A DNA stretch of 32,000 bases, taken from NCBI RefSeq assembly GCF_035285525.1, contig NZ_JAYKGW010000176.1, positions 21,702 to 53,701 of the forward strand, written 5' to 3'. The DNA is from Okeania sp. (GTDB lineage Bacteria; Cyanobacteriota; Cyanobacteriia; Cyanobacteriales; Microcoleaceae). Position numbers and translations under genes: made by a program. Under the pieces are notes generated by a model that searched no databases, had not been told where the DNA came from, and saw only the letters and a list, made by a program, of their open reading frames with translations. Below, one piece after another: positions 4,939 through 21,476 of this stretch (the first letter of the stretch is position 1; every line of letters begins with the position of its first letter).

Positions 4939-5970
4939 ATGAATAAGTTAGTCCATTACTTTGAAAGAAATGCTAAATTCATAATAGTCCTGATATTATT
5001 TCTCTTTTCAGTTGCTTTAATATTCCTTCCTAAACCACCTAAAAATCTAAATGACTGGATATTAATTTTGAATAATATTGGATTTAACCTCTTAGGTGCT
5101 GTAATCGCCTTTTTGGTTTTTCAAGTAATTGTTGAAGGAATAAATAAATTAGGTGAACAACGTGGGGTTAAAATTGATGCTCTAAACAAAGATGATTTTA
5201 TTAAAAAAGTAATCAAGTCTAAGAATACGGTGAGAATTATGGAAACCTGGACTGATTTACTTAGTTCTAATCAATTTTTAACGACTTTTAGTGATGCTAT
5301 AGAAGCATCAGTCAGGAACAATAATACTATATTTGAAATTTTATTACTAAATCCAGAAGATACTTATTTAGTGAAAAGACGTCAAGAAGATTTATCCAAT
5401 AATGAAGATGTTGAAATAAACATTTATCGAAGCATAAGTACAATTCAAAAAATACTCCAAAACTTGGGGAATATGGGTAAAAATTTTCAAGTCAAACTGT
5501 ACAGTAGAAATCCATCTCTAGCTATTTACATGAATGACGACGATCTCTTTTTAACTTTTTTTAGAGCTAATCTTAACACTTCTCAGGGAGAGCAGTTAAA
5601 GCTTCCTAGAAACTCAACTATTGGAACGTTTATTATTGAGGAGATGTTTTATGAAATATGGGAAGATACAAAGAATACGAAAGACCTTAACAATATAGTT
5701 TTTTACTGTATTAATATTAACAATAAACTCTATGATGTAAAATATATTTTTCAAGAAAATGTTTTCTATATTCAGAGTTCAGATTTAACAACTGATAGTA
5801 TCAACAACAATATTTTCCAGGACACTATTATTGAGGTAGATGATCAACAATACAAATTAACACCAGAAGCAAAAAGGAAAGAAGATTTACCTCTTAGGGT
5901 TCAAGAACTTTTTGATAATAAATATCCGACAACAGAAGATATTTTCTTTGAATTAATTAAGTTGAGATAG
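4939..5970 (+). CDS. Hypothetical membrane protein: N-terminal 2-TM hairpin plus a roughly 280-aa soluble region with no recognised family
   Basis: A 343-aa ORF with two hydrophobic helices (FIIVLILFLFSVALIFL and IGFNLLGAVIAFLVFQVIV). GC was about 28% in a 100-nt hand count, against about 39% in ndhD. The soluble part alternates beta-alpha segments (VRIMETWTDLL, FEILLLNPEDT, FQVKLYSRNPSLAIYMNDDDLFLTFF). This faintly resembles non-catalytic PLD-like or DUF5919-type domains, with low confidence. Confidence 0.6.
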   Translation: MNKLVHYFERNAKFIIVLILFLFSVALIFLPKPPKNLNDWILILNNIGFNLLGAVIAFLVFQVIVEGINKLGEQRGVKIDALNKDDFIKKVIKSKNTVRIMETWTDLLSSNQFLTTFSDAIEASVRNNNTIFEILLLNPEDTYLVKRRQEDLSNNEDVEINIYRSISTIQKILQNLGNMGKNFQVKLYSRNPSLAIYMNDDDLFLTFFRANLNTSQGEQLKLPRNSTIGTFIIEEMFYEIWEDTKNTKDLNNIVFYCININNKLYDVKYIFQENVFYIQSSDLTTDSINNNIFQDTIIEVDDQQYKLTPEAKRKEDLPLRVQELFDNKYPTTEDIFFELIKLR

Positions 5971-5977
5971 ATGAACT

Positions 5978-7285
5978 TCAGCTATCAAGTTCAATTTTTG
6001 AAATATTAATCATCCTTCTAAAATTATCATAGGATTTACCTGAATTAATCAGATAATTTACCTTAGATATACATTCTTGAATCTGTTCTATCAAGTCTTT
6101 TTCTTTTAGTAAAAAAGCATTATTTGCTACAAGTATAGATGCTGCATTGGCAAGAATAAAATCTCTTTTACCTTGGATTTCATAAGTATTTTCATTGGTT
6201 AAAATTCTATAAAATAAATCCCTTTCAGTTTCAATTTCTTTCTGTTCCTCTATTTGGTTTATTGGTACTCTTTTAAGCGAGATATCTTCAGGAGAAAATT
6301 CCAGTATTTTGATGCTATCTAAATCAATTTTAATCAATAGGTTATTTGGTCTTTCTTCTTGAACATCTCGATAAGCATTTGATATCTCATCTATTCCTTC
6401 GTATGAGTGAACAATTATGCCTGTACTTCCTAGTTCTAAATATATGCCAATCACATAAGGCAGCATCCCTATATGAGATATACCAGTTGTATGGTTAACT
6501 GGATTTAATAACTGTGCATTTGGAGCTATAATTTTAAATATATCTATTGAAATAGGCAAATCTAAATTTCTCACAGTTGAATGCCAATTATTTTGCTGAT
6601 TCTGATAATTATATTCTAAAGTTTTTAAGTTTTCTTCCCATAATTCTATTCTGGCTTGCTTAAGATTATTGGAGTAAGGAAAACCAAGCTCGCTTAAAGT
6701 AATATATGCAAAATTATACTTTTCTAAACTTTCATTTATAGCCTTGATATCTATCCCTTTTTCATTATACCCAAATGCTTTAATTGCTTGATAGCTTCCA
6801 TGCAAAGAAGTAACATTACCTGTACCAGTTTTACAAATTCTGATTAAAGGTGAAACTATAATTGAAGCCATAGTTGTTGCATGAATTGTTTTGATTAAAT
6901 CTCCTCCACTTCCAAAAGCATGATCGTGTAGTAACAACTTGAGATTATTATTGTTTTTATGAATATGACTTAAGGTCTTATTTCTAACATAATTAGTCAA
7001 AAAGTTTACTTGTCTGAAGCCAACCTTACCATTGCCTGGTGCTATTTCCAAAAGAGTATTTTTTATGCTTTCTACTTCTTCATTTGGATTGATACATTTC
7101 TCAAAATAATTAATCAGCTTTTTGTCACTTATCGGACTAATTATTGCTTCATTTTCTAAGAATTTCCTAAAAACATCTGCTATTGAACCAAGTTTATTTA
7201 TGACTTCATTATTTTTAAGGTTTAATTGCTGAGAATAAAGTAAACGAAAATCTTCTTTTTTTATTGTAATAGTCCGAGGTGTCAT
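5978..7285 (-). CDS. Highly divergent TrpD-fold protein (glycosyltransferase family 3: anthranilate phosphoribosyltransferase / nucleoside phosphorylase superfamily)
   Basis: A 435-aa ORF. By eye, FGSGGDLIKTIHATTMASIIV..ICKTGTGNVTSLHGSYQAIKAFGY aligns with the TrpD pattern GTGGDG.NTFNISTAAA.V..VAKHGNR.VSSKSGSADVLEALG. IFKIIAPNAQLLNPV aligns with TIFNLLGPLTNP, and IIVHSYEGIDEIS aligns with VVHG.DGLDE.S. The C-terminal RDFILANAASILV...INSGKS aligns with RD.VLLNAA.AL...IDSGKA. GC was about 24% in a 100-nt hand count. Confidence 0.65.
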   Translation of the reverse strand: MTPRTITIKKEDFRLLYSQQLNLKNNEVINKLGSIADVFRKFLENEAIISPISDKKLINYFEKCINPNEEVESIKNTLLEIAPGNGKVGFRQVNFLTNYVRNKTLSHIHKNNNNLKLLLHDHAFGSGGDLIKTIHATTMASIIVSPLIRICKTGTGNVTSLHGSYQAIKAFGYNEKGIDIKAINESLEKYNFAYITLSELGFPYSNNLKQARIELWEENLKTLEYNYQNQQNNWHSTVRNLDLPISIDIFKIIAPNAQLLNPVNHTTGISHIGMLPYVIGIYLELGSTGIIVHSYEGIDEISNAYRDVQEERPNNLLIKIDLDSIKILEFSPEDISLKRVPINQIEEQKEIETERDLFYRILTNENTYEIQGKRDFILANAASILVANNAFLLKEKDLIEQIQECISKVNYLINSGKSYDNFRRMINISKIELDS

Positions 7286-8030: not shown

Positions 8031-10094
8031 ATGGGAAAAAATCTTATGTTGCGTTGGTTACTACCCAGTATACTCAGCGTTTTTGTCTTAGGAGTTCCTT
8101 CTGAAGCAACAACTCTAGAATCTTGGCGCTTTGAACAGGATCGGAACCAATTGTCCTTTACCACACAAGGTGGTGTTCAGCCAAAAGCCCAATTAGTTAA
8201 TAACCCAACTCGATTAATTATAGACTTGCCAGGAACAACTTTAGGTGGTGTCCAGACTTCCCAAGTTGTCGGTGGGGCAATTAAAGCAATTAGAGTAGGA
8301 CAATTTAATCCGGAAACAGCTCGAATAGTAGTAGAACTAAATAATGGTTATACTATTGACCCAAAAGAAGTAGAATTTCAGGGGATTTCTTCTAGCAGAT
8401 GGAATGTACAAATACCAACACCTAAACTAATTACTTCCACTACAAATATTGATATTGCACCTCAGTCTTCTCCCTCACCATCTCAAAATTCCCAACCTTT
8501 ACGTCGTCCACCATCTCAAAATTCCCAATCTTCAATTCTACTGCCTCCACGTTCACCCTCTCCTCCTCGCAGAATAGAAAGGTCAATCAATCAAAATAGA
8601 CCAAAACCTAATAATACTCTTTCCTCCAATTCAACTGCTACTAATGGGACATCTACTCTTGTACAAGATATCGAAGTAACAAAAGAGGGAATAGTTCTCA
8701 AAACAAGTGGTAAATTACCAGAAATTGAGCTGAAGCAGAGCAAAGACCGCAACTGGATGACCATTGATGTTCTTAATGCTACTTTAACTATCAAAAATTT
8801 CCAGCAAAATCAAAAGTTTGATGAGTTTGGATTAACAATTACTCGACTAACTCAACATTCAACTTCACCAGCAGTAGTTCGTTTAACAATAAAGTTCCCA
8901 GATAAAAAGACTAAATGGCAAGCTCGTGCTTATATGGGAGGAATAGCATTATGGCCTGAAGGAGAAGCACCACCGACAATTAATCAAGGTACTGGTTTTG
9001 CTCTAATTAACTCTCTGGAATTAAAAAATGGTAATGAATTAGTTATTACTGGAGATAAACCCCTAAATTATACCACTGGTTGGGATTCTGAAACAGATGC
9101 TTATGGAATTACTATATACAATGCTAAGGTAGATAGGCGATTTAGATTACCACCCCAAGAAGTTGGCAGTCCTTTAGTCTGGACAAAAATACGTCAGGAA
9201 GGTCCAGAAACAGTTTCAATTCTGGTTAAACCTGCTACTAACGTTAAAATTGCAGAAGTAACTCAGATTACTCCAGAAAAGTTATCTCTGGCAATGGGTT
9301 GGGGTAGTATCGGGAATGCACCTCCGGGTTGGAAGCCAAATCCTAGACCAGAATCTTCTAATACGAGACCTTCACCATTTCCCAGGAGAGAAAATTCACC
9401 GCCTCAAAATTCTCGTGGAAACACTACTACAACGAGAAGATGGCCTTTCCCTCCCCCTCGTCGCAATACTCAACAGCCTAATACTAATAATAGTAGTTCT
9501 AATTCTCGTTTTGCCTTGCCTAATCAACTACCTCGACGTAATGGACGATTATTGATAGTGATAGACCCCGGACATGGGGGACCGACTGATTTGGGTGGGG
9601 TTGGTTTTAATGGTATACGGGAAAAGGATATTGTGTTGCCTATTTCATTAGAGGTAGCTAAAATTCTGGAGCAGAATAATATACAGGTGCTTCTGACTCG
9701 GGAGACAGACCGGGATTTGGATTTGCCACCACGAGCAGAATTTGCTAATCGGGTAGGAGCAGATTTATTTGTGAGTATTCATGCTAATGCTATTAGTATG
9801 AGTCGTCCTGATGTAAATGGTTTAGAGACTTTTTATTATGAAAGTGGACTTGTTTTAGCACAGTATATTCAGAATAGTATGTTGCAAGCTTTTCCGACTA
9901 TGAATAATCGTGGTGTGAAGCAAGCCCGTTTTTATGTATTAAGAAAGACTGAGATGACTGCTGCTTTGGTAGAGGTCGGTTTTGTTACTGGTAATTATGA
10001 TTGGAGGATACTTGCAGATCCTGCTCAACGTAGTCGGATGGCGCAGGCGATCGCTCGTGGCATATTAGAATATGTTAAAGCTTATTCTCGATAA
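8031..10094 (+). CDS. amiC: N-acetylmuramoyl-L-alanine amidase, AmiC type (AMIN domains, Pro-rich linkers, Amidase_3 domain)
   Basis: The ORF is open from 7980. The ATG at 8031 gives a signal-peptide-like N-terminus (MGKNLMLRWLLPSILSVFVLGVPSEA). AMIN-like modules are present (..NPTRLIIDLPGT..IRVGQFNPETARIVVEL..). Two P/S/Q/N/R-rich linkers are present. The C-terminal amidase_3 domain reads LIVIDPGHGG...KDIVL...LLTRETD...DLFVSIHANA. Confidence 0.85.
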   Translation: MGKNLMLRWLLPSILSVFVLGVPSEATTLESWRFEQDRNQLSFTTQGGVQPKAQLVNNPTRLIIDLPGTTLGGVQTSQVVGGAIKAIRVGQFNPETARIVVELNNGYTIDPKEVEFQGISSSRWNVQIPTPKLITSTTNIDIAPQSSPSPSQNSQPLRRPPSQNSQSSILLPPRSPSPPRRIERSINQNRPKPNNTLSSNSTATNGTSTLVQDIEVTKEGIVLKTSGKLPEIELKQSKDRNWMTIDVLNATLTIKNFQQNQKFDEFGLTITRLTQHSTSPAVVRLTIKFPDKKTKWQARAYMGGIALWPEGEAPPTINQGTGFALINSLELKNGNELVITGDKPLNYTTGWDSETDAYGITIYNAKVDRRFRLPPQEVGSPLVWTKIRQEGPETVSILVKPATNVKIAEVTQITPEKLSLAMGWGSIGNAPPGWKPNPRPESSNTRPSPFPRRENSPPQNSRGNTTTTRRWPFPPPRRNTQQPNTNNSSSNSRFALPNQLPRRNGRLLIVIDPGHGGPTDLGGVGFNGIREKDIVLPISLEVAKILEQNNIQVLLTRETDRDLDLPPRAEFANRVGADLFVSIHANAISMSRPDVNGLETFYYESGLVLAQYIQNSMLQAFPTMNNRGVKQARFYVLRKTEMTAALVEVGFVTGNYDWRILADPAQRSRMAQAIARGILEYVKAYSR

Positions 10095-17164: not shown

Positions 17165-18094
17165 TTACTGGCAAATTTCTTCTAAGGTTTTTAAATTATT
17201 TCTCATCGCAGTAAAATAATGTTCTGGGTCTAGGGAACCACTATTTATTGGGTCTAATTTTTTTATTTTTAACCCATTATCTTTAGCAATTTGCTGCATT
17301 CTATTATCATCAAATCCAATTTCCGCGAGTAAATTTTTGACTTGATATTTTTTAGCTGTATTTATTACTCTTTGAATATCTTGAGGCGTAATACTATCCT
17401 GTGGCAATTCTACTATTGCTGTTTGTTGTAAATTATAGCGTTTTGCCAGATAGGGATAGGCATCGTGAAAGGCAATAAATTTACATCCTTGGAAAGGAGC
17501 TAAACGAGTTTGAAATTCTTGGTCAAGTTTCTGTAATTTTTGTAGATAAATATTAGCATTTGATTGATAATTAGCTGTATTATTAGGATTAGCTTTAACT
17601 AAACCATCCCGAATATTTTTGACTTGTTGTTGTGCTAAAAATGGGTCTAACCAAACATGAGGATTTCTCTCTTTGTGACCGTGGTTATGTTCATGTTTAT
17701 GGTCGTGATATTCATCTTCTTCTATAGGTTTAATATTTTGACTAGCATCAATTTCTTGTAGTTGAGAGTTACCAGTAGCATCGACTAATTTCTCTAAAAA
17801 TTCTTCTAACCCCAACCCATTTTTGACTAATACATCTGCTTGTGCAATAGTACGAGCATTTTCCGGTGTTGCTTGATATTCGTGGGGATCGGTTCCGGGA
17901 GGAATTAAAAGTTCTACTTTTCCAGTTTCTCTGGTGATTCCTTTGGTAAACATATATATAGGCAAGAAAGTGGCGACTATTTTAGTTTCATTTCTATTTT
18001 GAGCAAGGCTGCTAATATTTCCCAGAGAAGCAGTTGTGATAAGCGCTGCTACTCCTAGTAATGAACCACCCATCCATTGAAGTTTACTCAACAT
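17165..18094 (-). CDS. znuA: Zinc ABC transporter substrate-binding protein (TroA/ZnuA family with a His-rich loop)
   Basis: A 309-aa ORF with a signal-like N-terminus. An acidic, His-rich loop (EEDEYHDHKHEHNHGHKERNPH) is typical of ZnuA. A conserved HVWLDP motif is also present. Confidence 0.85.
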   Translation of the reverse strand: MLSKLQWMGGSLLGVAALITTASLGNISSLAQNRNETKIVATFLPIYMFTKGITRETGKVELLIPPGTDPHEYQATPENARTIAQADVLVKNGLGLEEFLEKLVDATGNSQLQEIDASQNIKPIEEDEYHDHKHEHNHGHKERNPHVWLDPFLAQQQVKNIRDGLVKANPNNTANYQSNANIYLQKLQKLDQEFQTRLAPFQGCKFIAFHDAYPYLAKRYNLQQTAIVELPQDSITPQDIQRVINTAKKYQVKNLLAEIGFDDNRMQQIAKDNGLKIKKLDPINSGSLDPEHYFTAMRNNLKTLEEICQ

Positions 18095-18111
18095 ATTATT
18101 TCCTAATTTTG

Positions 18112-18128
18112 AGAATGATTATCATTCT
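18112..18128. promoter_or_regulatory. Perfect 8-1-8 palindrome AGAATGATTATCATTCT, a Fur-family (Zur-type) operator candidate
   Basis: It lies 18-34 nt upstream of the znuA ATG. On the coding strand it overlaps a -10-like TAGAAT. The AT-rich ATGATAATCAT core matches Fur/Zur box architecture. Confidence 0.65.
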
Positions 18129-18295
18129 AGTCTAGAAAATAATAAAAAACAACCCCCTGGTAAGGGAATTTGGGAAATGTGGGAGCTGTGGGAAGTTTGG
18201 GGAGGGTGGCAGGAAAGTCCGTTTTTATTAATAGGCCAGGACTTAAGCTTATCGACCAAGAGAAATAAATTTTTTCCTTTTATAAGATTGCTATA

Positions 18296-18889
18296 TCAAT
18301 CAGGATAATAATATTCCCACCAATTACCATATATTTTGACTATTTCATCTGATCGGTGATTGTGTATATATAAACAATTTTCTTTACCAAGAGGCACATA
18401 AGCAATACCAAATTGATCAAAAATAAAAGTATCAGTTGTAAAGAAAGTACATTTTTCGTCTTGGTAAATGGACTCAACATAAAACCATCCAATTCTGGTA
18501 TTGTATTGACATAAATTAGGATTATTTACACAATTCATTAAAGCAGATTCAGATAATTTTAATCTAATTGTATCTGTATAAGCTGCTAATAAAATTTATA
18601 AAACAATTAATAATGGTACTCCTATGGCTTTAATTAAAGTTTTTACCAGAGAATATTTCAGCTTATTTTTTTTGAGAAAATATATTAATATTCTCACAAG
18701 TTCTATGAGCCAATAAATGCCGATAATCAAACCAAAAATCAGAGCAATTATCAGAGCAATTAAATATACTGAAAATTCCAGGAAAGACCTAAAAATTAAT
18801 ATAATTTGCCAGCCTTGAGCTAGAGGTACAATTAAACAAAGAAAAAGTACAATTATTTCCCAATAATTTTTGATTAGTTTAAACTTCAA
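18296..18889 (-). pseudogene. Paralogue (copy 1) of the 197-aa membrane protein at 20248-20841, interrupted by one in-frame TAA
   Basis: It has the same 594-nt length and is collinear with copy 2 with no indels. A TTG start is preceded by GGGAGG. A single in-frame stop at 18596-18598 (TAA where copy 2 has TAT, Tyr) splits it into the tracked ORFs of 97 aa and 80 aa. Confidence 0.7.
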
Positions 18890-19040
18890 ATTGTATCTAC
18901 CTCCCTATTCCATAAAAATATAGCATTTCCCAAGAAGCGTGAAATACAGATAATTATAATTAATATTACCAGGGCGGGCATCTTGCCCGCGTGGGTGTAC
19001 CTGACGCCTGGTGAAATCCGCTATACTTTTTCAGTAAATC

Positions 19041-19571
19041 CTAAATATCTATATCTATAACAATGTAACCTTGATTATTTAATACAATATTATCCTTTCT
19101 TTCAAAAACAGTTTGAATAAACAACGGACAATTTCGGTAACAAAAAACTACTTCTTTTTTACCTAAAATACTGACGCTATTAAAATACAAAGGTAATTCT
19201 GCTAATAGATATTTAACCGCAATTTCTAACCGATAATTACTAATATCTGTTTGAGTTTCTACTACCTGCCTAGAAGTTTCAAGACAGTTGTTTCTAAATT
19301 CAATATCATTAGCATATTTATCTTCATAAAATTTTAGTGTTGAGAGATAATTTATGTTTTTATTCAAATACTGGGAATCTATAATTAGTGCTTCAGCTTC
19401 ATTCATTGACAAGTCTAATCCTACTAATGCTCTCAAACATTTATTTTTCAAATAATTAGCTTGCCTTTTAGCTTTTTTTGTAGCTTTAACTTGATCATAT
19501 TCTAAAGCCATTAGTGTATAAACATAAGCTTCGTCCGGAATAACAAGATTAAAACTCTTAAAATTATTCAT
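19041..19571 (-). CDS. Hypothetical protein, 176 aa, no recognised family
   Basis: An intact ATG-initiated ORF in a low-GC setting between the two paralogue copies. It looks mostly helical in the centre, with beta-like N- and C-termini. I recognised no motif. Confidence 0.5.
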   Translation of the reverse strand: MNNFKSFNLVIPDEAYVYTLMALEYDQVKATKKAKRQANYLKNKCLRALVGLDLSMNEAEALIIDSQYLNKNINYLSTLKFYEDKYANDIEFRNNCLETSRQVVETQTDISNYRLEIAVKYLLAELPLYFNSVSILGKKEVVFCYRNCPLFIQTVFERKDNIVLNNQGYIVIDIDI

Positions 19572-19748
19572 CGCCCACTTTGATCAAATAGCTATATTTT
19601 TTTCAGAAAAAAAGCTATTAAATTGACTAATACCTAAAACTGAATATTCTCCTCTTTCGTATAATATTTAGCAATTACTCCTAATCAGATATACCTTACT
19701 TATTGGTTATGATTCTGTCATATTAAGATACATTTTTTTCTCTTTTCC

Positions 19749-20141
19749 CTATTCCCTATTCCCTAATTTAGCAATATAATAATTATTGAAAATATCTTCT
19801 AGAATTTGTTTAATATCCACATTTATAAACCCTGCCTCATTTAACATTTTCACTGCTTTTTGTTCTCCCCATATTGCACCAAGTCCTACCCCATTTTGTC
19901 CCAAGAAAACGGTCATGCAATGCATACAAAATGTTGTGTATAACCACGGCGCTAAAGGATGATCCAGGTTTTTATGTAGATTACTTGATACTCCCAAGTC
20001 AACCATCAAGAAAGTTCCATCAGGTTTCAGAGAATCAGCTATGTTTATTAGTTACTTTGTGTAAGTCCTCCTAGTAATAGACTACAATAATTTTGAAAAT
20101 AGAAACTGATTTTGTAGTAAATGCCCCACCATACCAATATC
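19749..20141 (-). pseudogene. Remnant of a class I SAM-dependent methyltransferase
   Basis: The C-terminal part is intact (..ADSLKPDGTFLMVDLGVSS...DHPLAPWLYTTFCMHCMTV.L..NGVGLGAIWGEQKA..L.EAGF). Upstream, a motif-I-like IDIGMVGHLL is followed by stops and an apparent internal deletion. The N-terminal half is absent. Confidence 0.55.
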
Positions 20142-20160
20142 TATAGCAATATAAAATCGT

Positions 20161-20250
20161 TAGACATCTTCAGAAAAGAGGAAATCGGCGGAAAGAATAG
20201 ATGATTTGTGTCTGATAATTGATTTAATTTTTTATTTCTGGAGATGCCTA
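20161..20250 (-). mobile_element. MITE-like element, family A, copy 4, inverted
   Basis: The reverse complement reads taggcatctccagaaataaaaaattaaatcaattatcagaca...cctcttttctgaagatgtcta, nearly identical to copy 1. Its last 3 nt (cta, 20248-20250) form the TAG stop of the adjacent CDS. Confidence 0.65.
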
Positions 20251-20841
20251 ATCAGGATAATAATATTCCCACCAATTACCATATATTTTTACTATTCTAT
20301 CTGATTGGTGATTGCGTATATATAAACAATTTTCTTTACCAAGAGGCACATAAGCAATACCAAATTCATCAAAAATCCAGGTATCAGTTGTAAAGAAAGT
20401 ACATCCTTCATACTGCCTAATAAACTCAACATAAAACCATCCAATTCTGGTATTGTCTTGGCAGAAATTAGAAGCATTTACACAATTAATTAAAGCAGAT
20501 TCAGATAATTTTAATCTAATTATATCTGTATAAGTTACTAATAAAATGTATAAAAGAAACAATACTGGTACTCCTATAGTTTTGATTAAAGTTTTTATCT
20601 GAGAATATTTCAGTTTGTTTTTTTTGACAAAATGTATGAATATTCTCACAACTTCTATGAGCCAATAAATGCCGATAATAAAACAAAAAATCGGAGGCAT
20701 TATCAGAGAAATTAAAAATAATGAAAATTCAAGGAAAGACCTAGAAATTAATATGATTTGCCAGGCTTCAGCTAGAGTTACAATTAAACAAAGAAAAAGT
20801 ACAATTATTTCCCAATAATTTTTGATTAGTTTAAACTTCAA
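20248..20841 (-). CDS. Hypothetical membrane protein (copy 2, intact): 3 TM segments plus a 4-Cys C-terminal domain
   Basis: 197 aa. A TTG start lies 7 nt after a strong AGGAGG. The hydrophobic N-terminal half is followed by NCVNASNFCQDNTRIGWFYVEF..GCTFFTTDTWIFDEFGIAYVPLGKENCLYIRNH..IYGNWWEYYYPD. It is about 80% identical at the protein level to copy 1. Confidence 0.6.
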   Translation of the reverse strand: MKFKLIKNYWEIIVLFLCLIVTLAEAWQIILISRSFLEFSLFLISLIMPPIFCFIIGIYWLIEVVRIFIHFVKKNKLKYSQIKTLIKTIGVPVLFLLYILLVTYTDIIRLKLSESALINCVNASNFCQDNTRIGWFYVEFIRQYEGCTFFTTDTWIFDEFGIAYVPLGKENCLYIRNHQSDRIVKIYGNWWEYYYPD

Positions 20842-20928
20842 AGGAAAACCTCCTAATTATCATACACTTTTTTATCAAATAAGCCGAAGGGTAGGTCATA
20901 TTTTTAGAGAGTAGTTGACTGTTTCACC

Positions 20929-21422
20929 CAAAATAGTGCATGGGGTAAGGGCGGGTTTTAGCTAGAATTTTCATGCTTATTCTAAGATTTATAGGACTTA
21001 CGCATTAACTCTATTGGCACTGGAATGTTTCATCTAAAATGGTGCAATAGGTAGGGGCGGGTTTCTCAGGAAATTTTCATGCTTACTCTAGGATTTACAT
21101 AAACCCGCCCCTGAGAGGCGGCTCAGATGATATGGGGCGGGTTTATCTGATCAACCCATGAAAACTCCTTAACTCACTTGTAAAACCTGCCCCTACGGTG
21201 TCTTCTCTAATACACAGTTTTAGCTGAAACATTTCAGTAGGGTGTGTACGCGACATGTAAAGCGCACTTCCTAACGCACCAGCACTCCAGTAAGTCCTGA
21301 TTTATATAAACCCGCCCCTCGAACGGTAACTTATATCATTAGGGGGCGGGTTGATCTGAGAAACCCATTAAAACTCCTTAACTTAACGGTGATTTTTCGG
21401 GAACCGTAACCCGCCCCTACGG
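20929..21422. repeat. Cluster of at least 4 family C hairpin elements (GGGGCGGGTTT / AAACCCGCCCC arms)
   Basis: Copies lie at about 20929-20992, 21034-21112, 21132-21196 and 21308-21422. They fill the spacer downstream of fumC. Two sub-types share either the ..attttcatgctta.tctaagattta.. interior or the ..acccat.aaaactccttaact.. interior. Confidence 0.6.
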
Positions 21423-21476
21423 AGTCTAATTCCCTAATGCAAACAATTAGTTGTTTTATTTCATTATTGAACTGTA

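Follow-up and report, generated by a model that had tools for sequence, protein, structure and literature searches.

A probable duplication-and-decay relic carrying a putatively diversifying membrane protein gene between fumC and znuABC in Okeania

Gene content of the locus

We analysed 32,000 nt of an Okeania sp. draft genome (assembly GCF_035285525.1, 6.5 Mb in 260 contigs, 97% complete; contig NZ_JAYKGW010000176.1, positions 21,702 to 53,701), hereafter the window. Its minus strand carries, between fumC and znuABC, two copies of a gene for a 197-aa membrane protein labelled P, and between the copies lie the remains of two biosynthetic genes. The comparisons below suggest that this layout arose by tandem duplication followed by decay, and that P itself diverges in an unusual way. 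The four central features are as follows.

18296–18889, minus strand: P copy 1, B-type, 92.5% nucleotide (nt) and 85% amino acid (aa) identity to the Okeania SIO2C9 gene, in frame apart from one TAA codon
19041–19721, minus strand: cyclodipeptide synthase (CDPS) pseudogene, collinear with its intact 224-aa counterpart in relative G008 (82% aa and 89% nt identity)
19749–20042, minus strand: methyltransferase (MT) remnant, 98 codons left at the 3' end of a 358-aa gene (Rv2258c-like winged helix-turn-helix (wHTH) domain plus class I S-adenosylmethionine (SAM) methyltransferase)
20248–20841, minus strand: P copy 2, the sole intact copy, 197 aa with a TTG start and AGGAGG 8 nt upstream

An earlier reading by a model that saw only the letters and their open reading frames (ORFs), the sequence-only reading, had described the P genes as two same-strand copies of 594 nt that align without indels, and pairwise alignment bears this out. 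The copies differ at 61 nt, an identity of 89.7% over the full length and within the range of about 86–93% that had been judged by eye. The differences are spread nearly evenly over the codon positions (23:16:22) and affect 40 codons, 39 by replacement and one by a nonsense change, which agrees with the earlier count of 40 differences in 197. The first 63 nt and the final 39 nt ahead of the stop codons are identical, much as had been stated for both ends. The flanks of the two copies do not align, so that the paralogy is indeed confined to the coding sequence (CDS). Both copies use TTG starts behind strong Shine-Dalgarno (SD) sequences, but the two motifs had been assigned in reverse order; GGGAGG precedes copy 1 and AGGAGG precedes copy 2.

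The description of the pair as two paralogues of a 197-aa protein has to be amended. Codon 98 of copy 1 is TAA (18596–18598), where copy 2 has TAC, and this stop splits the gene into ORFs of 97 and 80 aa. The lesion looks recent because copy 1 has few lineage-specific changes. The pair accounts for every copy of P in the assembly. The intervening cassette had been called low in GC, and its GC content is in fact lower, but the effect is modest (26–31% versus 31–41% in the flanks).

A dead cyclodipeptide synthase and a methyltransferase remnant

Within the cassette, a 176-aa ORF (19041–19571) matches the CDPS profiles PF16715 (110.9 bits, cut-off 27) and TIGR04539 (131.2 bits, cut-off 45), covering profile positions 44–218 of 220. 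This ORF is the portion of a CDPS gene past its last in-frame stop, and homology continues upstream to an ATG at 19721 across TAA at codon 5 (19707–19709), TAA at codon 18 (19668–19670) and TGA at codon 46 (19584–19586). The candidate that the ORF is an intact orphan gene was rejected, as it is the tail of a CDPS with three upstream in-frame stops. The motif GISPFNS, whose serine we take to be catalytic, as in AlbC-type CDPSs, reads GISQFNS here, and the gene between the copies is neither uninterrupted nor full-length. Divergence from the G008 gene is 8.5%, 11.2% and 13.5% at codon positions 1, 2 and 3. By its stops and altered motif, the CDPS of the window is classified as a pseudogene.

A deletion corresponding to positions 5628–6518 of G008 locus L017 has removed the first 783 nt of the adjoining MT gene together with some of the spacer ahead of it. 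An 86-aa ORF at 19749–20009 falls within the remnant; it has no Pfam or NCBIfam match, and the wHTH and SAM-binding Rossmann core (PF21320 and PF13847) are not present in it. Judged from these lesions, the CDPS–MT locus of the window would not be expected to give a product.

Intact counterparts occur in the relatives, where the 224-aa CDPS adjoins one to three SAM methyltransferases. In G008 the cluster (contig C14, locus L017, 1139–6410) holds the CDPS and three MTs of 358 aa (wHTH), 276 aa and 608 aa (two MT domains), a composition that suggests a multiply methylated diketopiperazine as the product. A homologue of the 608-aa MT, 72% identical, is present elsewhere in the genome of the window (contig C48). 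The locus resembles known CDPS and methyltransferase clusters in its strong profile match and in the intact genes with MTs of its relatives. It differs from them in that its CDPS is dead, with all three nonsense codons ahead of residue 51 and an altered GISPFNS motif, and in that its MT is cut to 98 codons. Reports of CDPS clusters in cyanobacteria are rare; one example concerns Roseofilum metagenome-assembled genomes (PMC9967302). The intact clusters of the relatives, with up to three MTs nearby, could be mined for methylated diketopiperazine.

Comparison with relatives points to a tandem duplication

A survey of copy number and neighbours had been proposed, and in addition to the two copies reported above it identified P matches in six of 40 relatives searched, five of them among the 11 same-genus genomes and one from another genus. 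Homologues occur only in genomes of Okeania, Trichodesmium and Dapis, and each of them carries a hypothetical-protein annotation. Two types of locus were recognised. In type i, PatA-like regulators and then fumC precede paralogues A and B, which are separated by ~240 nt. Type ii comprises aldolase, YkuD and metallophosphatase genes, paralogue C, znuA, znuC and znuB. In G001, G008 and Trichodesmium MO_231, the gene directly ahead of znuA is paralogue C; the G008 type C gene carries a TGA, and G007 carries a fragment. The content at or next to the type i position varies among genomes.

G008 and G002: A, B, intact MT and intact CDPS after fumC
G001: fumC followed directly by a truncated MT and an intact CDPS, with no P there
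G007: A and B after fumC; CDPS not found in the genome
G004: A and B on a 3.6-kb contig (the fumC linkage lies outside the contig); CDPS not found in the genome
Okeania SIO2C9: a single B-like copy; CDPS not found

In the tree of P, A and B are separated from C with 100/100 support, and copy 1 is sister to the B clade (83/90). Copy 2 occupies the position of paralogue A, the first gene past fumC, and its upstream region matches that of A; in sequence, copy 2 mixes A-type and B-type states. It was rejected as a simple two-block chimera of A and B, the A- and B-type sites being interleaved.

The relatives' spacers carry traces of the cassette. Two pieces of the cassette are fused within the A–B spacer of G008, one of 80 nt from the MT 5' end and the region ahead of it (91% identity) and one of 78 nt from the CDPS 3' end (78%), and we read this spacer as a deletion scar. 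In alignments of both G008 and G007, the last ~12 CDPS codons are followed by ~45 nt and then by the TTG of B, and in the window this sequence recurs from the CDPS to copy 1, with a 101-nt insert as the sole interruption. The scar is present in G007 too, which lacks a CDPS. Downstream of the intact CDPS of G008, the match extends up to 5–10 nt before the TTG of B. The 3' end of the window CDPS (19041–19052) reads ...VIDIDI*, as do the A–B scars of G008 and G007, and the intact CDPS of G008 ends ...VIDI*; this 6-nt difference appears to mark the source unit of each remnant.

This comparison indicates that a unit of P, MT and CDPS was duplicated in tandem and that the layout of the window is probably an ordinary duplication-and-decay relic. 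An ancestor in the Okeania, Trichodesmium and Dapis group would have carried fumC followed by one such unit. The duplicated span would have run from ~5–10 nt upstream of the P TTG to ~55 nt beyond the CDPS stop. In G008 and G002, most of the first cassette would later have been deleted, leaving the MT-5'/CDPS-3' scar, and the second cassette kept. In the genome of the window, the first cassette would have been kept and have decayed through the MT 5' deletion, three CDPS nonsense codons and a repeat insertion, everything past the second P copy would have been lost, and a repeat-rich junction would have joined copy 1 to the znuABC promoter region. The gain of the TAA by copy 1 would be the last, recent step. 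On this account the copies flank the cassette because the unit was repeated. The sharp limits of paralogy are then best explained at the 5' side as the duplication breakpoint and at the 3' side by replacement of the flank of copy 1 through rearrangement, and the SD sequences of B and of copy 1 appear to derive from the CDPS 3' flank. Among the genomes examined, the first cassette is preserved in that of the window alone, and its retention explains the otherwise puzzling A–B spacer of the relatives.

The locus resembles other cases of tandem segmental duplication, differential loss and concerted evolution in its head-to-tail unit, in lineages that keep different halves, in scars of the deleted half and in copy ends that are more alike than the middles. 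It differs from them in that silent sites are homogenised and amino acid differences in P are high. Gene conversion at the ends, as suggested by the sequence-only reading, is plausible, since the copies are 93–96% identical there, matching or exceeding their identity to orthologues. The relic lies in a genome lineage that is rich in repeats, as described for Trichodesmium (PMC4649490). The spot downstream of fumC can be regarded as a fast-turnover islet in Okeania- and Trichodesmium-type genomes.

The shared history of P, MT and CDPS raises the alternative that P functions within the cyclodipeptide cluster, in self-protection or in export or sensing of a methylated diketopiperazine. In G008, G002 and the window the three genes are same-strand neighbours, and they were duplicated as one unit. 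However, in G001 both P copies are deleted and an intact CDPS still follows fumC, P occurs where no CDPS was found (G007, G004 and Okeania SIO2C9), type C copies adjoin znuABC and not a CDPS, and in the window copy 2 is still open beside a dead CDPS and MT. We consider a cluster role quite unlikely. P and CDPS are found apart in several genomes, and the linkage of P to the intervening genes appears to stem from co-duplication and to be historical rather than obligate.

The junction with znuABC

The sequence-only reading had placed the cassette directly upstream of a Zur-controlled znuA. The znuA gene (17165–18094) does adjoin copy 1 on the same strand, and a Zur-type palindrome lies between them. 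Two features make up the intervening DNA.

18106–18170, minus strand: znuA upstream region common to the relatives, with a terminator-like hairpin (18151–18170) and then a 17-bp Zur-type palindrome (18112–18128)
18169–18295, no strand assigned: junction DNA with a short repeat (18245–18283, 36–39 nt, ~25 copies) and G-rich heptamer-like repeats, the meeting point of the fumC-side and znuABC loci

At 18168 and below, the sequence corresponds to the type ii znuA upstream region. The 125 nt past the copy 1 stop match neither the type i nor the type ii locus, and no homologue of the junction DNA was found in either ancestral locus. A type C copy and an orthologous metallophosphatase gene were not found in the genome of the window, where the aldolase and YkuD genes lie on another contig (C5, 8400–10800) and are followed by unrelated genes. 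We interpret this as a joining of the fumC-side and znuABC loci in this genome. Recombination inside the CDS is unlikely at the junction because copy 1 is B-like to its end. In line with this, copy 1 was rejected as a B/C recombinant within the CDS; its 3' end is 67–73% identical to type C, versus 82–91% to B and Okeania genes.

An assembly artefact, in whole or in part, with a false join of fumC and znuABC loci at short repeats and some of the stops being errors, has to be considered for a draft of 260 contigs in which the junction contains short repeats present in many copies and lacks an equivalent in relatives. Against this, the copy 2/MT, CDPS/copy 1 and fumC/copy 2 junctions are matched by junctions or scars in independent genomes, and the repeats at the znuA-side junction are just 36–39 nt long. 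Four separate nonsense codons and a deletion within 2.5 kb are unlikely as sequencing errors, and the genome has no other P copy, type C locus or second znuABC. An artefact is, in our view, highly improbable.

The palindrome (AGAATGATTATCATTCT, with at most two mismatches) precedes znuA at 18112–18128 in the window and at 8572–8588 of L005, 6050–6066 of L018 and 7315–7331 of L020 in three relatives, and it is always downstream of a P paralogue. No Zur-type operator was found upstream of the P genes in the window or in the loci of the three relatives. The sequences give no sign of Zur control of P, which is probably a transcription unit of its own, separate from znuA.

These observations also bear on the proposal that P is accessory to zinc uptake or belongs to the Zur regulon. 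The order of type C, znuA, znuC and znuB in G001, G008 and Trichodesmium MO_231, with copy 1 in the same place here, fits such a role, as do four Cys residues that are invariant in the cyanobacterial clade. However, in all four loci the palindrome lies only between P and znuA with none upstream of P, a terminator-like hairpin separates copy 1 from znuA, and paralogues A and B reside at the fumC locus instead. The Cys residues are not conserved in distant relatives of P, and the ratio of nonsynonymous to synonymous substitution rates (dN/dS, or omega) is near 1 in P versus 0.16–0.30 in the znu genes. A zinc-related role is therefore very unlikely.

Rate and mode of P evolution

The sequence-only reading had noted an excess of replacement changes between the copies, and this excess is family-wide. 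Between copy 1 and copy 2, dN/dS is 0.89 by the NG86 method and 0.62 by YN00, and NG86 values for all pairs in the family, including intact orthologues, range from 0.6 to 2.6. Tree-wide omega was estimated with IQ-TREE under GY+F3X4.

P family: 0.995 for all 15 genes; 0.987 for the 13 intact genes; 1.28 for the A+B clade
P by region: 1.30 for the transmembrane (TM) half; 0.77 for the C-terminal half
Neighbouring genes: fumC 0.10; response regulator 0.23; znuA 0.30; znuC 0.24; znuB 0.16

The site models M0, M1a and M2a were fitted with our own implementation on a single fixed tree. M2a assigns 25–29% of the P codons to omega 0, 66% to omega 1 and 7–8% to omega ~8–9 (8.5 on the full set). It is favoured over M1a with twice the log-likelihood difference (2dlnL) equal to 92, or 86 without gap-adjacent codons, and the response regulator control gave a 2dlnL of 0. 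Ten sites have a posterior above 0.9 (25, 26, 36, 50, 103, 129, 142, 144, 179 and 182). The sequence-only reading had offered relaxed or diversifying selection as explanations. A class of positively selected sites is favoured (2dlnL 86–92), and decay of copy 1 is not supported as the cause.

Polarisation of the differences between the copies assigns 8 as derived in copy 1, 20 as derived in copy 2 and 31 as polymorphic in A+B. Decay of copy 1 as the source of the replacement excess was rejected, given fewer derived changes in the broken copy and omega ~1 in the intact genes. Two nonsense events are seen on the P tree versus ~40 expected under neutrality, a ~20-fold depletion, and all length differences in the family are multiples of 3. 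On this comparative evidence the reading frame of P is clearly indicated to be under selection.

Relaxed selection would have P, or at least copy 1, decaying like the cassette in a lineage rich in non-coding DNA. It accommodates the TAA of copy 1, the TGA of the G008 type C gene and the G007 fragment, the nearly even 23:16:22 distribution over codon positions, the 66% of codons at omega 1 under M2a and the dead CDPS and MT next door, and the non-coding fraction of the Trichodesmium genome is put at 40% (PMC4649490). It is at odds with omega near 1 in the 13 intact genes and within orthologous pairs, with 8 derived changes in the broken versus 20 in the intact copy, with the two nonsense events against ~40 expected and the lack of frame-shifting indels, and with the codons that fit omega 0 (25–29%) and omega ~8–9 (7–8%). 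We regard relaxed selection as unlikely.

Silent sites behave differently. Between given genome pairs, 4-fold sites diverge by 0–8% in P and by 17–37% in fumC, the regulator, znuA and znuB, the P values being 4–10 times lower. The P paralogues show ~7% 4-fold divergence, yet fumC shows 28% for the species split that they pre-date, and their dN is 0.10–0.20. Exchange between lineages, homogenisation or silent-site constraint could each produce low silent divergence, and the P family seems to have been homogenised or exchanged between lineages. The combination of omega ~1, some sites well above 1, low silent divergence and a strictly kept frame is rare for a bacterial chromosomal gene and is the unusual part of the locus. 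Across the islet from ~18290 to 21000, divergence from relatives in silent and pseudogene DNA is 0–13% over P, MT and CDPS, far below that of the flanking core genes, and the whole islet looks younger than its flanks.

Features of protein P

The earlier reader recognised no family for P, and library searches likewise came back empty. No family was matched in Pfam-A or NCBIfam at E ≤ 1 and nothing in PADLOC or PHROGs below E 0.4; a sequence profile gave 0 matches against PDB. An AlphaFold2 model built from an 8-sequence alignment has a mean predicted local distance difference test (pLDDT) score of 63, with 70–85 in the C-terminal part, and a Foldseek search with it found no similarity above noise level (best E 0.2 in PDB and 0.33 in BFVD, template-modelling scores below 0.27).

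The model contains helices at residues 9–32, 36–74 and 80–122 and a beta domain at 131–194. Lys and Arg residues number three in the N-terminal tail and seven in the loop 64–89, which has no acidic residues, and the C-terminal domain has a net charge of -4. P is predicted to have three TM helices, an N terminus inside and a beta-rich domain of ~90 aa on the outer face; the N-in, C-out orientation is proposed because the charge distribution follows the positive-inside rule. A topology prediction for the C-terminal domain with its four Cys residues had been called for, and by its charge distribution it would face outward. The four Cys residues invariant in the cyanobacterial clade are Cys120, 127, 147 and 172.

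A profile search of 1.8 billion representatives returned 29 matches only. The distant relatives are membrane proteins of 170–240 aa that share R109, S113, L117, G134, G161 and W190/W191 with P and are without the conserved Cys residues; the shared motifs are R..LSE.AL, GLF, GCVxF.T, GLAY.P.G and YG.WW. A second, word-indexed search with the alignment of distant relatives yielded one further weak match, and the gene neighbourhood of one distant relative gave no lead on P. We infer that P is a real gene of an unannotated membrane protein family.

Beside the P pair, G007 locus L016 (contig C100) carries a 199-aa ORF at 5757–6356. It belongs to a multi-copy gene family, because more than 20 homologues (27–58% identity) are scattered in the genome of the window.

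Weighing the evidence and possible roles of P

Taken as a whole, a duplication-and-decay layout with P as a diversifying membrane protein is the reading we consider probable. Several points weigh against it. In the site-model tests the znuA control gave a modest signal as well (2dlnL 14), signs of gene conversion or exchange in the P family can inflate such tests on a fixed tree, and omega is overestimated if the silent sites of P are themselves constrained. In the tree, copy 2 falls at the base of A+B without joining either paralogue, and its A/B-diagnostic sites are interleaved; its orthology to A rests on position. A single draft assembly is the source of the four nonsense codons and of the copy 1/znuA junction, which is unique to it. 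The structure model is weak, with a mean pLDDT of 63 from 8 sequences, and the function of P is deduced only from sequence and model.

Most likely, P is neither a component of zinc uptake nor a tailoring component of the CDPS cluster. Our best guess, and the weakest step of the argument, is that P may be an envelope-exposed accessory protein under diversifying selection, for example at an interface with phages or competitors. A broader version of this proposal, which we put forward only tentatively, is that P and its ~200-aa distant relatives make up a new membrane-anchored protein family whose members carry an extracytoplasmic domain. In marine filamentous cyanobacteria this family would be diversifying under selection and repeatedly exchanged or homogenised between lineages, and it could act at a phage or competitor interface through receptor masking, exclusion or immunity. 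This is kept open because replacement divergence is several-fold above that of the neighbours and silent divergence several-fold below it, with the frame maintained.

By analogy, P could be compared with bacteriocin immunity and phage-exclusion proteins. Like these, it is small, has few TM helices, is patchily distributed, has paralogues in tandem, sits at a variable spot rich in repeats and shows an omega of at least 1. Unlike them, it has no sequence, profile or fold similarity to such proteins and no partner toxin or phage gene nearby. If it is confirmed, the pattern of evolution seen in P would suggest an arms-race function in cyanobacteria that form blooms and mats and are ecologically important.

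Repeats and spacers

The remaining DNA around the P copies and the cassette consists of spacers and repeats.

18890–18921, minus strand: terminal part of the duplicated unit, including the GGGAGG SD of copy 1, homologous to the DNA upstream of paralogue B and downstream of the G008 CDPS
18922–19022, no strand assigned: repeat element of 101 nt with ~25 genomic copies, between the CDPS 3' flank and the ribosome-binding site of copy 1
20043–20247, no strand assigned: spacer s2, homologous to the spacer past paralogue B in relatives

The 101-nt repeat is absent at the corresponding site in relatives. Within spacer s2, positions 20043–20226 are 84% identical to the post-B spacer of G008 (L017, 6519–6703). 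Its gene-proximal part (20156–20246) is a repeat resembling a miniature inverted-repeat transposable element (MITE), with more than 100 genomic copies; this repeat is old, because it is also present downstream of the orthologues in relatives.

The sequence-only reading had both stop codons touching a MITE terminus. This nearly holds for copy 2, where the repeat ends 1 nt short of the TAG. It fails for copy 1, where the repeat at 18245–18283 lies 12 nt from the TGA and does not overlap it. These two elements and the 101-nt repeat are short, non-coding and present in many genomic copies (more than 100, ~25 and ~25, respectively), and are MITE-like by copy number.

Between fumC and copy 2, positions 20900–21430 hold a dense stack of GC-clamped hairpin repeats, segments of which occur in 50–200 genomic copies. 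Two of these hairpins score as terminator-like on the minus strand.

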